This document shows, piece by piece, positions 621 to 16,966 of a stretch of DNA of 44,011 nucleotides. Positions within the stretch are counted from its first letter, which is position 1; every line of letters starts with the position of its first letter. The DNA is from a virus (taxonomy: Duplodnaviria; Caudoviricetes), in IMG/VR virus record IMGVR_UViG_3300020045_007976, positions 1 through 44,011 of that record; one strand, written 5' to 3'. Position numbers and translations under genes: made by a program. The notes beneath the pieces are model-generated. The model made no database searches and had not been told where the DNA came from. It was given only the letters and a program-made list of their open reading frames with translations.

Positions 621-1040
621 TTAATAGTTTAAATATGCGTCAGGTAATTTTTCTCCTGGGAACAGAGAAAATATATTTTCAGATATACAAATTTTATGAC
701 CTTTATCGTAAATCAACTCATATCTGTTTGCAGAATCTCTGCCAATAACTTTTCTAGCCGAAATTGGTTTTGCATCCTGCAATAATTCAAACAAACATCT
801 TTCATGTTGTTTAAAATGTTCCATCAATTTATTGTGCTCTTTTTCAAAAGCGAAATTATTTATAATCATTCTATCTGAATCAGAAAGCCTAATTTTATCC
901 AAACTTATCAAATCGATAAACTTATCGACAATTGATTCGAAGTCAGAAGAAATAGTTTTCAAGTGCTTTTTATCTGAGCTACGATATATTTTTAATCCGG
1001 ATCTGGTTTTTTCTGTGAAGTATTCAAAATTCGTTTTCAT
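621..1040 (-). CDS. Hypothetical protein
   Basis: Operon packing. Confidence 0.65.
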   Translation of the reverse strand: MKTNFEYFTEKTRSGLKIYRSSDKKHLKTISSDFESIVDKFIDLISLDKIRLSDSDRMIINNFAFEKEHNKLMEHFKQHERCLFELLQDAKPISARKVIGRDSANRYELIYDKGHKICISENIFSLFPGEKLPDAYLNY

Positions 1041-1048
1041 AATTTTTG

Positions 1049-1486
1049 TTATTTAAGATTAATATTTTCATTTGTTAGCCAAGGCAGAAAAGGAAGTAAT
1101 TGAGTTTGTGCGTCTGATAACGACCGAACTAATAAATACACGCCACCTAAAGCTTCTACTTTTTTTTGTATCTTGATTTGATCTGGTGATTGACTTCCGA
1201 TTGATGTTTTGACTTCAATATTTACACACCGGCCGACAACCCCTTCAATTTTCAAATCTGATATTCCAGAAACCATTCCCGACTTTTTCAATAAATCAAT
1301 TTGCATTGCTATTGAATTTCGAATAGCTGCATGAAATTGTTTTGGTATGGATGCTGGAATATTGAAACCAATACCATTTGGAATGGAATGCACGACAAGA
1401 CTTGGCGAATGATTTGCTAGACAATACGTGTTGTTTATCCAAGTATAGATTTGTTGCTGAATTGCTGTCTCGTTTTCTGTTTTCAT
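1049..1486 (-). CDS. VRR-NUC (PD-(D/E)XK) nuclease
   Basis: E..IQ, G..SG.SDL, IEVKT and QS.DQ motifs; coupled to the helicase. Confidence 0.85.
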   Translation of the reverse strand: MKTENETAIQQQIYTWINNTYCLANHSPSLVVHSIPNGIGFNIPASIPKQFHAAIRNSIAMQIDLLKKSGMVSGISDLKIEGVVGRCVNIEVKTSIGSQSPDQIKIQKKVEALGGVYLLVRSLSDAQTQLLPFLPWLTNENINLK

Positions 1487-3162
1487 TTTGTAGTTATTAC
1501 GGTTATTGGTTTAATTTCTTCTTTTGGGATCTTGTAAAATGTGTCGAGTTTATTTTTCACTACATTCAACAAATTGTCAAACGTTCGCATATTCTTCCGT
1601 TCAAATGATACAGCAAAAGTTTTCATCGGTTTTGCCATTATGCTTTTCAACTTGTCATGAAATTGAGAATCTCCCAAACTTTTCTCGTACATTCCGCGTG
1701 TTACATAGTGATAAATAAAGACGTCGACACAACTATTTATCAAAATCGTATAAGCAAAAGCCAAATCTTTTTCGTTTTTTCGAGTATATTTTACTATTTT
1801 GCCACCATCTGGAAGCGGGTAATCGTCAATTAAAACTGCTACTTCATTGGATAGTTTCTTTTCTCGATTGTAAACTAGTTTTTCAAATCCGCAAACATCA
1901 CATATCAACAAGCTTTTTGGATGGATGTTCCCGCAACCTTCGCATTGAATAGTATTTTCGAGGGCTTCTTTTTTTGGTTTTGGCTTCGAATTTGACCCAA
2001 AGAAATAAGCTTTCCAATCAACGTAATCTTGCCACTTTCCGTGCGCCTCAATATTACCACCTAAATCAATCACTTTGAAACGTTCTTTGTAAATATCGTC
2101 ACACTTTCTGGAACCACGTCCTACCATTTGATGATAAAGAGAAATTGAAGCGGTCGCTCTGTTTAATATGATGCTTTGAAGTGTTGGTTCGTCAAATCCG
2201 GTTGTAAGTATCGAGACGTTGTTCAAGATTGCATCAGGCGTTTCTTTAAACCATTTCAAAATACTTTCGGCACTTTCGCAATCGTTCACACTATCAAATA
2301 ATTTTACATTAGTATATCCGGCATCAATAAATTGATTGTAAGTTGCTAGATTATTTTTCGCACTTGAATTGAAAATCAACGTTTTTTCACCTTTACATAT
2401 TTTTTCATACTGAAGCACAACATTTGCAATTGCTTCTTTTCCAGAAAATTCTTCATCATCGAAATCATTTGTTTTAGCGTCAATCTTCAAATCTTTATGA
2501 TGCACCTTTCCAAAATCATAATTCAAAGGCTGAATTAAACGCCCGCTATCAATTAATTCTTGAATAGGTGTTCCTATAATTATATCCTCGAATATTTCCG
2601 ACAAAGTGAAAGGCCTTGTATATTCAAACATTTCGACATTACAGCAAATTATTGGAGCCTCTGAAATATTCCCGCAACGTGTGCATTTGCAAAATGAAAC
2701 TTTTCTTAATACTGCAGGAGTTGCCGAAACTGCCAAAATCTTTACTCCTGGGAAATATTGAAATATTTCTTCGAATATCAAAATATGAGCTTCATCGCAA
2801 ATAATCAAACCTAAATCTTTAACGAATTCCGAATCTATTTTTAAACGCCTTTTAAGCGTCTCAATCATTGCGCAATAACTGTTTGATAAGTGATTCAATT
2901 TCTTCTTTTTAGAAGTGACCGTTTCAACTGTCATTCCTATTTTACGCAATGTTTCTGTTGATTGTTTAATCAATACTTCACGATGGGCAACTATTAATGC
3001 TTTTGAATTGGTTTTTAAAAACCATTGTTTTGCGATGAAACTAAAGATTGCTGTCTTGCCTTAACCACCGCCTGTCGGTAACTGGTACAACAGGCGGTCA
3101 TTGGTGTTAAAGTGATTAATAATTAAATCAATATCTTTTTGTTGGTCTGGGTATGGTGTCAT
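1483..3162 (-). CDS. SF2 DEAH helicase, full length, with an in-frame TAA at codon 34 inside Walker A
   Basis: The ATG at 3162 overlaps the HNH stop (ATGA) and reads MTPYPDQQ...QLPTGGG*GKTAIF...AHREVLIKQ, in frame with 1483..2973. That ORF carries DEAH, SAT, TGFD, QMVGRG and a C-terminal CxxC. Confidence 0.88.
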
Positions 3163-3689
3163 AAATGTTTCCATGATTTACCCGTTCTTATGTTGCTAAT
3201 ACAAGATTGAGTTACGTTAAATTTTCTAGCTAATTCCAGTTGTTTTGACTTACTTTCTAATATAATTTTTACTTCATTTTCTTTAAGTTTATGAAAATTG
3301 TTTTTAATTCCTTCTCTTGCTTTTCCATTTTGTAAACCCGTATTGTAAGCATGTGTTCTATTTTCGCTTAAAGTATTCCATTCAAGATTTTCAACTATGT
3401 TATTGTTTTTGACTCCATCAATATGATTTACCTGAGGCTTATTTTTTGGGTTTGGTATGAAAGCACTAGCGACTAATCTATGAACAGTTCTAGTGTTTGT
3501 TTTTTTATTTACTTTTAAATTTACTTTTAAGTATCCGTCTTTATCTGGAAGTTTTTTAAGCATAACACTTCTTCTTATCGCTTTACCTCCAGATGGATGA
3601 TTAACTAATCTTTCAATACTTCTAACATTTCCTAAATTTGAAACTTCGTAAGCCTTGAAATTTTCTATTTCTTTCCAAATTTCTTTCAT
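3159..3689 (-). CDS. NUMOD4-HNH homing endonuclease (free-standing)
   Basis: EIWKEI...YEVSNLGNVRS (NUMOD4) and VHRLVA..F...VNHIDG.K.NN..NLEW (HNH). Confidence 0.92.
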   Translation of the reverse strand: MKEIWKEIENFKAYEVSNLGNVRSIERLVNHPSGGKAIRRSVMLKKLPDKDGYLKVNLKVNKKTNTRTVHRLVASAFIPNPKNKPQVNHIDGVKNNNIVENLEWNTLSENRTHAYNTGLQNGKAREGIKNNFHKLKENEVKIILESKSKQLELARKFNVTQSCISNIRTGKSWKHL

Positions 3690-3700
3690 ATAATTTGTTT

Positions 3701-3973
3701 TTATAGTTCCTGCAATGTTTTTCCATTCATTCGTGATTCTATTATATGAAAAGTTTGAGTTATGTAAACCGGAGTGTAAATAATAGTACTATCATTTTTT
3801 ACATAATTTTTATTACTTACCAAATTGAAAGATTTTCTACTATAAAATGCTATTCCTGATTGTTTATAAGCTGCTTCCAAATTAAGCTTTTTTAAACGAA
3901 CTCTTATTGTTTCCTCAATAACATTACTTTTTTTAGCTATTTGCTTTACGGTGTATCCTCTTTCTGCTTTCAT
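3701..3973 (-). CDS. Putative HTH DNA-binding protein
   Basis: YTVKQIAKKSNV.EETIRVRL is HTH-like. Confidence 0.55.
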   Translation of the reverse strand: MKAERGYTVKQIAKKSNVIEETIRVRLKKLNLEAAYKQSGIAFYSRKSFNLVSNKNYVKNDSTIIYTPVYITQTFHIIESRMNGKTLQEL

Positions 3974-3989
3974 AATCAATAGTTTTAAT

Positions 3990-4009
3990 AACCGCCCTTT
4001 CGAGCGGTG
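3990..4009 (-). terminator. GNRA-loop hairpin after the SSB-like gene (terminator or processing site)
   Basis: Minus strand ACCGCTC-GAAA-GGGCGGT with a weak U tract. Confidence 0.5.
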
Positions 4010-4021
4010 TTTTTGTTTAGA

Positions 4022-4393
4022 TTAAAAAGGAAGGTCATCGTGTTCTTCTTCTTTAAAGGTGGTATTTGGTTCGAAATCTGCTGCTGGCATTGGTGACGAT
4101 TGTGTATTAGATGCTCCTTGTAAACGTTCCAATCTCCAGCCTTGAATAGAGTTGAAGTACTTAGTTTCACCACTAGGATCAACCCATTCCCTACCTCTTA
4201 AATTGATAGACACTTTTACTGCTTCATTCGTTTGATAACCGTTCAATAAATCACATTTATCCTGAACGAATTCAATCATAATATGCTGTGGATATTGTTC
4301 TTCAGTAGTAACTACTAATTCTCTTTTCAAGAAACTTCCGCTTCCTACATTTTTGGCTTCGCCAATCATTTTGATTTTTCCTGTAACTTCCAT
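4022..4393 (-). CDS. DUF3127 family, SSB-like OB-fold protein
   Basis: KRELVVTT.EQYPQ, NLRGREW, YFNSIQGW and an acidic DDLPF tail. Confidence 0.88.
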   Translation of the reverse strand: MEVTGKIKMIGEAKNVGSGSFLKRELVVTTEEQYPQHIMIEFVQDKCDLLNGYQTNEAVKVSINLRGREWVDPSGETKYFNSIQGWRLERLQGASNTQSSPMPAADFEPNTTFKEEEHDDLPF

Positions 4394-4395
4394 GT

Positions 4396-5046
4396 TTAAA
4401 ATTTTAATATTTCTAATTCAACATCAATTTGTTTTTGTAATTCGATTGCCTCAGTTTTTGCAATATCAACCCATTGTTGTACTGTTTTAATAACTGGCTT
4501 TGCTTTTGTGCCTAAATTAATTTCGCTGTCTCTAGTAAGCATAAATACAAAAATAGGCTTGTAAATATTCTCTGGCCTCCAACTACAGAAATAATGTTTT
4601 TGTAATTTTGGGTTTACTGTGAAGTAATGCACACATTGATTAATATTATCATTAGGGATATTTCCTAAACGAATGGTTTGTAAATGTCTTTTTGCCCCTG
4701 GGCATTTTATTTCTGCACTTATCGTTTCGCATTCTGAAATGCCATCAGGAGAAATACCGAGCAAAGGAATTTCTTCGCTTTGTAACCATCCGCATTCTAA
4801 TAACTCAACTTCAATATAGGCAGATAAGGCTTTCCTTGCTTCTGGCTCTAATTCTTGGCCTCTTATCATGTCAAATGATTGGTAACTTTCTTGTAAATCA
4901 AATTCCTCACATAGTTCCGATAAAATATCTTCTAGTAATGTGTCTGATTTAATAAACAAGCCTTTTGATAAAGTACCACCTATTTTACCATAGCGCATCT
5001 TGTGCCATTCTTCTGAGTTCTGTTCAATTTCGTAATGTGCTTTCAT
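4396..5046 (-). CDS. YqaJ / lambda-exonuclease-like recombination nuclease
   Basis: Q.SEEW..R.G, RG.ELEP.AR, SPDG and EIKCP motifs. Confidence 0.9.
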   Translation of the reverse strand: MKAHYEIEQNSEEWHKMRYGKIGGTLSKGLFIKSDTLLEDILSELCEEFDLQESYQSFDMIRGQELEPEARKALSAYIEVELLECGWLQSEEIPLLGISPDGISECETISAEIKCPGAKRHLQTIRLGNIPNDNINQCVHYFTVNPKLQKHYFCSWRPENIYKPIFVFMLTRDSEINLGTKAKPVIKTVQQWVDIAKTEAIELQKQIDVELEILKF

Positions 5047-16812: not shown

Positions 16813-16815
16813 TTG

Positions 16816-16888
16816 TGGAAAAGGTTAGATTCGAACTAACAACGCTCAGCTCTTCAAACTGACGCTCTACCAATTGAGCTACATTTCC
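16816..16888 (-). tRNA. tRNA-Phe(GAA)
   Basis: Full cloverleaf: GGAAATG/CTTTTCC, GCTC/GAGC, TCAGT-TTGAAGA-GCTGA, GTTAG-TTCGAAT-CTAAC. Confidence 0.92.
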
Positions 16889-16894
16889 TTTTAG

Positions 16895-16966
16895 CGGTCT
16901 ATGAGAGAATCGAACTCTCATCACAAGCGTGACAAGCTTGCATCCTAACCGTTGAACGAATAGACC
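16895..16966 (-). tRNA. tRNA-Asp(GTC)
   Basis: GGTCTAT/ATAGACC, discriminator G, CAAGC-TTGTCAC-GCTTG, GAGAG-TTCGATT-CTCTC. Confidence 0.93.

Follow-up and report, generated by a model that had tools for sequence, protein, structure and literature searches.

A recurrent stop-codon interruption of the Walker A motif in phage SF2 helicase genes and its probable crossing by a short programmed ribosomal hop

How could a complete helicase be produced from a phage gene in which motif I (Walker A) is cut by a stop codon? This question is raised by a locus in the window, by which we mean the whole 44,011-base stretch of DNA that was analysed, a complete virus record with direct terminal repeats at its ends. 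On the minus strand, where all parts of the gene lie, the sequence from the ATG at 3162 runs ...CCG ACA GGC GGT GGT TAA GGC AAG ACA, that is, PTGGG*GKT, and the peptide on the two sides of the stop reads MTPYPDQQ...LLYQLPTGGG*GKTAIFSF.... The part before the stop (ORF1, 3064..3162) has 33 codons and encodes the N-terminus through PTGGG, the first half of motif I, with a register and a length that match those of intact homologues. Beyond the TAA (3061..3063), ORF2 (1483..3060; 525 codons) contains GKT together with motifs II (DEAH), III (SAT) and VI (QMVGRGSR), and it matches Pfam ResIII, DEAD and Helicase_C as well as phrog_16. Motif I is complete solely across the gap, and in the protein read across it motifs I, II, III and VI and two RecA-like domains are present. 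The original prediction had described the ATG 3162 frame, open on both sides of the stop, its coupling to the stop of an HNH gene and an annotated 496-aa helicase without motif I, all of which is confirmed: the ATG overlaps the TGA of an upstream NUMOD4-HNH endonuclease gene, and the frame chosen by the ORF caller begins at the TTG at 2973 and lacks the motif. The public protein record of this helicase (P0001) is 483 aa long, and the earliest ATG, GTG or TTG of ORF2 is codon 29 counted from the GGC that follows the stop.

The answer that we favour, with a probability of roughly 0.84, is that a short programmed hop of the ribosome yields the full 557-aa helicase, and the hop interpretation in the original prediction is supported. 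The roles of the codons involved are assigned from the sequence: GGT (Gly33; 3064..3066) would be the take-off codon, GGC (3058..3060) the landing codon and AAG (3055-3057), which encodes the Walker A Lys, the codon at which decoding resumes. In the proposed mechanism, peptidyl-tRNA-Gly would leave GGT while TAA occupies the A site, slide 6 nt and re-pair at GGC, and decoding would restart at the catalytic Lys; nine bases would then yield one Gly.

The intact relatives of the gene indicate what has been interrupted. E. coli RadD is the top PDB match for one such relative, and the window helicase is the sole ResIII-family match in its complete genome. An intact TG[GA]GKT is found in 107 of the 120 homologues listed, and removal of the 6-nt gap restores the same motif; the 13 listed homologues without TG[GA]GKT in their first 120 residues include the window record, and two of these 13 are KPTGAGKT proteins that were missed by the pattern. 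Close intact relatives (L001, 75% identity; L002, 71%) are without exactly these 6 nt. The nearest cultured homologues (30-36%) infect Cellulophaga and Flavobacterium, which makes a Bacteroidota host likely for the window phage.

The interruption is not peculiar to the window. A search for homologues sharing GGN-stop-GGN at Walker A had been suggested, and there are 18 distinct alleles (the window included; identical ORF1-gap sequences were dropped before counting) in which a stop stands directly after the final Gly of motif I (T-G-x-G) in phage SF2 (RadD-like) helicases. The second Gly codon, ahead of Lys-Thr, lies 6 nt downstream in seven alleles, 5 nt in ten and 1 nt in one, and the stop is TAA in 7/7 of the +6 alleles and TAG in the +5 alleles. 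In every allele ORF1 begins with ATG and is 33-37 codons long, and the ORF2s have 440-600 codons except at contig ends, with motifs II and VI retained in the full-length ones. The original description of a minimal 6-nt element stands for the window, where the gap is indeed 6 nt, but not as a fixed unit, as the +5 form is the commonest found and a +1 form exists. Similarly, a Bacteroidota phage is likely for the window, but the element is not confined to such phages: some carrier loci have 46-63% G+C, and their nearest cultured homologues are phages of Firmicutes or Proteobacteria.

These alleles come from scans that sought the conserved codons 3' of the gap and excluded the intact form. Two of them accepted an insert of any kind of 1-30 nt after ACA GGN GGN, with no demand for a stop or for a hairpin; two helicases were obtained among six matches in viral contigs and four among nine in metagenome contigs. 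All six have the same hairpin and a stop immediately 3' of the third Gly, and their gaps measure 1, 5 or 6 nt. The motif-only +6 scan gave three helicases in four matches, and, in the corresponding +5 scan (32 matches, classed by eye), split helicases made up 11/18 of the matches with TAG vs 0/14 of those with the non-stop TGG. The GTDB scan gave one helicase in 36 matches, that of L135, a Bacteroidota assembly; when 401 genomes of the phylum of L135 were covered, its locus and one non-helicase chance match were found, with four matches in the reversed control. A distant blastn search of the junction against cultured phages gave short chance matches only.

It should be considered that every scan except the hairpin-pattern scan, which found two helicases, demanded GGN before AAR-ACN, so that conservation of the landing codon is not independently shown by them; the Gly/Gly pair at take-off and landing, present in 18/18 alleles, was likewise set by the search patterns. 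Take-off and landing share a wobble class in 12/18 alleles vs 10.0 expected (p 0.30), they are identical in 7/18 (6.2 expected), and 6/18 are GGY/GGR mismatches. Thus, decoding of both codons by the same tRNA-Gly(GCC), as had been suggested, holds in the window but fails as a rule of the family.

Additional records touch on the distribution of the element. One +5 carrier (L224:3-1808, minus strand) has an intein in an ORF2 that is cut by the locus edge, and two parasitic-type elements are found there in one helicase gene. Several homologues lack an N-terminus (P0013, P0014/P0128, P0055, P0058, P0105 and P0114) and may be further carriers; P0055 begins with V-G-K-T, like the +1 allele. The 13 of 120 N-truncated protein records, some of which are probably contig ends, were left out of the allele count.

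Simple readthrough, in which a near-cognate tRNA would read TAA and leave two extra residues in the P-loop (TGGGXGKT), agrees with the preserved frame of the window gap and with the +6 spacing of 7/18 alleles. However, it is impossible for the ten +5 alleles and the +1 allele, which have the same site and hairpin, and it can be excluded as the common mechanism because these alleles exist. Moreover, the longer motif I that it predicts is found in 0/120 of the listed homologues, and TAA is the main stop of the genome (25/29 ORFs checked), in which the tRNA genes are those for Phe and Asp only, with no suppressor. Readthrough is consequently very improbable. On the same two grounds, stop usage and tRNA content, a recoded genetic code in the window phage was rejected. 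The two tRNA genes, Asp(GTC) and Phe(GAA), are adjacent (window 16815-16966, minus strand).

An error of sequencing or assembly would be conceivable for the window, which is a single contig, but the GGT-TAA-GGC junction is identical in the independent assemblies L081 and L135, there are 18 distinct alleles, the interruption is accompanied by a hairpin, and two isolate genomes in GenBank also carry it. An isolated error can also be discounted for the +1 form, since three proteins from different contigs (97.7-99.6% alike) begin with V-G-K-T. An error is thus extremely improbable. The isolates are the cultured Nonlabens phages P12024L and P12024S, which read GCA GGA TA GGT AAA ACC, a +5 allele; their ORF1-gap sequence is that of L248, and the three count as one allele. 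Their helicases are annotated from an ATG downstream of GKT. Among 11 cultured-homologue records, Walker A is split in these two and whole in nine (L003, L004, L256-L260, L262 and L266), and a single CDS is annotated across the site in seven more cultured homologues (L261, L263-L265, L267, L268 and L270). An annotation that begins after GKT is in itself no evidence of a split, because L262, so annotated, is intact (PV870137, 599-713, with the annotated start downstream of GKT). Walker A is likewise intact in L266 (MT613935, about 640-750), where a tandem duplication of ~50 nt farther downstream disrupts the frame.

If the stop is crossed, both halves of the gene are expected to be under selection, and this is what the substitution patterns indicate. 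Comparison of the window with three intact relatives (pN and pS being uncorrected proportions) gave, for ORF1, pN 0.24-0.26 vs pS 0.75-0.82. For the 28 codons from the landing codon to the first possible restart, pN was 0.164-0.169 vs pS 0.45-0.81, similar to the remainder of the gene (pN 0.18-0.20, pS 0.73-0.77). Because there is no start codon before codon 29, this 28-codon stretch would be translated solely by ribosomes that cross the stop. Part of the divergence between carriers and intact genes predates the element, because the element moves; comparisons between carriers gave a similar picture. In the pair L138/L140, sisters with a common hairpin design and the cleanest selection case, pN was 0.109 vs pS 0.756; L077/L008 gave 0.046 vs 0.703 and, for the rest of ORF2, P12024L vs P12024S gave 0.017 vs 0.094. 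Purifying selection is thus seen on the codons that separate the stop from the earliest potential restart, and the suggested test of such constraint on both halves came out in favour, with pN well below pS in ORF1 and in the post-gap codons.

These data also bear on the possibility of a split or disabled helicase, in which translation would stop at TAA and restart downstream, the products being a peptide of 33 aa and a protein that lacks its N-terminus; the insertion would then be an endonuclease-blocking scar in a gene that is dispensable or otherwise used. The association of the element with endonucleases agrees with this idea, as do the early starts of some alleles: L008, L222 and the P12024 phages have one four codons past the landing codon, and the +1 allele has a GTG that would give M-G-K-T. 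Yet K-T and the following helix are conserved (pN far under pS) in the window and most alleles, in which the first start lies 13-63 codons beyond the landing codon, and a split protein fails to explain the conservation of K-T without a preceding start codon. Additionally, full-length ORF2s retain motifs II and VI, and a scar needs neither a repeatedly built hairpin nor a fixed stop position. Although somewhat less remote than readthrough, a split helicase is thus unlikely in comparison with a hop that joins both halves.

The hairpin itself lies directly 5' of the gap. The predicted stem, ACCGCCTGT (3098-3090) paired with ACAGGCGGT (3075-3067), is present and extends to 11 bp, with a 5' arm at 3088..3098 and a 3' arm at 3067..3077 (minus strand) that ends 1 nt ahead of the take-off codon. 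It folds at -19 kcal/mol (z -3.9), a stability that 0/200 dinucleotide shuffles equalled, and window ORF1 is also more stable than synonymous-codon shuffles (z -2.15; 1/100 equally stable). The stem is absent in the intact relatives L001 and L002. More generally, when each ORF1 was folded against shuffles that preserve the protein and are drawn from the codon usage of the gene itself, z ≤ -2 was obtained in 15/18 carriers (median -3.0) vs 2/59 intact genes (median +0.3), which ties the hairpin to the interruption as had been proposed; in the G+C-rich carriers L222, L224 and L234, the fold was no better than the synonymous shuffles.

The details of the stem point in the same direction. In the eight closest alleles, 87 of 88 stem cells are paired (the sole broken one is in L135) vs 241/583 in the same columns of 53 intact genes, two-sided changes are found at 2/11 stem pairs (A-U to G-C in L081 and U-A to A-U in L139), and one Arg is encoded by CGC in 8/8 of these alleles vs 4/53 intact genes. 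In other lineages, the same T-G-x codons form the 3' arm and the 5' arm is taken from different codons, either one codon nearer or 40-50 nt farther upstream, which suggests that the hairpin has been invented repeatedly. The mRNA structure at the gap is, consequently, under selection, and a stimulatory role is predicted for it. An intact gene, L017, has 10/11 of the stem pairs in its ORF1 by count, though they are weak, and may be a revertant or a precursor.

It might be supposed that the gap is removed before translation, whether RNA polymerase skips it, the RNA is processed or the DNA slips at the hairpin in a fraction of the population; the hairpin could form in DNA too, and close relatives include both intact and split alleles (L135 vs L028/L058). 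Nevertheless, gaps of 1-6 nt are below splicing size, no Rfam match (group I intron or other structured RNA) at E ≤ 1 was obtained in window 1000-4500, and a homopolymer run for slippage is absent. The hairpin-pattern scan gave, among helicases, split genes only (2/2), and the stop that would occupy the A site in every allele suits a ribosomal event. Removal of the gap before translation is thus highly improbable.

In a ribosomal hop, by contrast with these alternatives, the predicted 11-bp hairpin would probably help as a forward ratchet, zipping behind the ribosome. Its 3' arm covers positions -11 to -1 relative to the P-site codon, which places it inside the ribosome, and would thus pair only as the mRNA moves forward. 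Re-pairing at the landing codon would depend mainly on two G-C pairs, because codon matching is at chance level, and the +5 alleles likewise need non-overlapping re-pairing for a joined product. In any case, the interruption is a real, recurrent and selected feature of these genes.

Where the gap comes from is a separate question, for which the upstream gene is relevant. It encodes a free-standing NUMOD4-HNH endonuclease (176 aa; 3159..3689, minus strand; Pfam NUMOD4 and HNH_3; phrog_59), likely the driver of a cassette. Its product is 71-72% identical to those of the genes upstream of the L081, L082 and L135 helicases, and the window helicase sits in a different clade from these three despite the similar HNH. 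An HNH or GIY-YIG gene is found directly upstream in 7/18 carriers (6/7 of the +6 alleles) vs 5/56 intact genes (Fisher p 0.006), although these rows are not independent and the upstream ORF of L077 was picked by hand; in 11/18 carriers a recognised adjacent endonuclease is absent. GIY-YIG or HNH genes also directly precede the intact helicases of L049, L021, L027, L043 and L068, and the site upstream of the helicase looks like an endonuclease hotspot.

The distribution of the element on phylogenies supports its mobility. On a quick ORF2 tree of 94 rows, the carrier label requires 11 changes, at least nine of them forced by well-supported branches. Monophyly was rejected for the seven subfamily carriers (p-AU 2e-82) and also for the three rows that share an HNH (p-AU 3e-7, a group chosen after the tree had been viewed). 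Additionally, the identity of L135 to the intact L058 is 0.93 downstream of the gap and drops to 0.77 and 0.64 in the two parts of ORF1, vs 0.95, 0.98 and 0.92 over the same three segments for the intact pair L028 and L058, so that the identity breakpoint of L135 is located at the gap. As 32 intact control pairs also show a deficit, with ORF1 identity a median 0.06-0.08 under that of ORF2, only larger drops count as mosaic, and the mosaic signal is clear for some loci only.

Other neighbours were observed. Among 80 distant relatives of the HNH (36-64% identity), there is no carrier of the element, and in 13 the helicase that comes next has a defect of another kind. These 13 viral records (L177-L188 and L212) are near-identical; in them, a NUMOD4-HNH-like gene lies ahead of an SF2 helicase (about 3100 in L177), whose motif I (QQPP-R-TGKT) is broken by an extra C (CCG CCC TCG) that causes a +1 frameshift with no adjacent stop. 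They may represent a lineage in decay or a further case of endonuclease-linked recoding. Three +5 carriers (L008, L075 and L077) have a conserved ~50-aa ORF (MN[TS]NEYMR...) near the helicase start, which may be an endonuclease remnant; its copy in L077 matches a PHROG family of unknown function only.

By analogy with T4 gene 60, where a gap is considered to shield the gene from the adjacent endonuclease while the protein is unchanged (10.1101/2022.08.31.505936), we lean slightly towards the view that the helicase gap originated in, and travels with, a homing cassette formed by the endonuclease, ORF1 and the gap, in which it provides self-protection. The gap would break the endonuclease target in the conserved Walker A codons with no change in the protein, and it would outlast the loss of the endonuclease. 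Helicase output would drop, which may itself be useful; related phage helicases have been described as triggers of retron defence (PMC12746101).

Natural bypassing has been established or supported in very few systems, namely T4 gene 60 and its relatives, Magnusiomyces mitochondria and the Hau3 terminase. The helicase family provides 18 natural alleles, a signal of ~45 nt and three hop lengths in one essential motif, and it makes it testable whether hairpin refolding behind the ribosome is sufficient for forward sliding and how close a codon match landing requires. If the hop is confirmed, these would be the first natural in-frame stop-hops, together with a natural +1/+5/+6 series at one site, and hopping would work on ordinary bacterial ribosomes in several host phyla. 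Phages could then interrupt the most conserved helicase codons, becoming immune to their own homing endonuclease with the enzyme throttled. With odds that we place a little above even, the alleles represent a widespread and repeatedly evolved class of minimal hops (5' hairpin, Gly, stop and a slide of 1-6 nt) with both properties. The family also suggests that homing endonucleases may, as a general strategy, use bypassing to settle in positions where mutation is not tolerated. On a practical level, genes of this kind get annotated as N-truncated helicases.

In the literature covered, in which subscription papers are thinly represented, hopping within the helicase gene of a phage is not reported, although an earlier mention in a supplement or a genome paper is possible; the word helicase is absent from the accessible main text of PMC10732093 and PMC3711429. 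The closest parallel is T4 gene 60/MobA, with a Gly take-off codon followed by a stop, a Gly landing codon and an endonuclease cassette (10.1101/2022.08.31.505936; 10.1101/2024.12.09.627546), and with a 5' stem-loop that has been proposed to drive the ribosome forward (10.1101/2024.12.09.627546). The helicase element shares this arrangement of codons and stem-loop, and in some alleles also an HNH/GIY-YIG neighbour, which would often have been lost; it too takes the place of the 5' end region in a conserved gene and has close relatives without it. Nevertheless, its gap is 1-6 nt rather than 50 nt, it lies in the Walker A of an SF2 helicase rather than in a split type II topoisomerase, and the distance from stem to take-off is 1 nt instead of 9 nt; on the first two grounds (6 nt in the window), membership in the MobA/gene 60 element was rejected. 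According to the same sources, gene 60 also has a take-off stem-loop, a mini-SD and a nascent-peptide signal, whereas none of these has been identified in the helicase element, in which ORF1 peptides vary widely among alleles. Take-off and landing codons are not strictly matched, unlike those of gene 60, and no sequence homology between the two is proposed.

Other systems share single features. In the gene that encodes terminase in Streptomyces phage Hau3, bypass was seen by mass spectrometry in E. coli with UUA changed to UAA (PMC10732093). This is also a short phage coding gap with a slow A-site codon and a proposed 5' stem-loop, but it differs in its 10-nt gap, its hungry UUA codon, the gene affected and its regulatory interpretation. 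The byps of Magnusiomyces mitochondria are likewise mobile bypassed inserts that tolerate an imperfect match between take-off and landing, but they have 27-55 nt, an unused sense codon and relaxed mitochondrial ribosomes. Promotion of +1 frameshifting, also on 70S ribosomes, is known for a hairpin immediately 5' of the position of the shift (PMC6321510), although that upstream refolding hairpin was studied in engineered reporters and with 1-nt shifts, not hops of 5-6 nt. In synthetic E. coli stop-hops, nine nucleotides are read as one residue, and a 2016 review states that none acting in frame was known from nature (PMC5009743). Such hops are laboratory constructs, whereas the helicase arrangement is natural and recurrent and has a selected hairpin. 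The gaps in the helicase genes (+1, +5 and +6) correspond to the very shifts that the title of Weiss et al. 1987 reportedly names.
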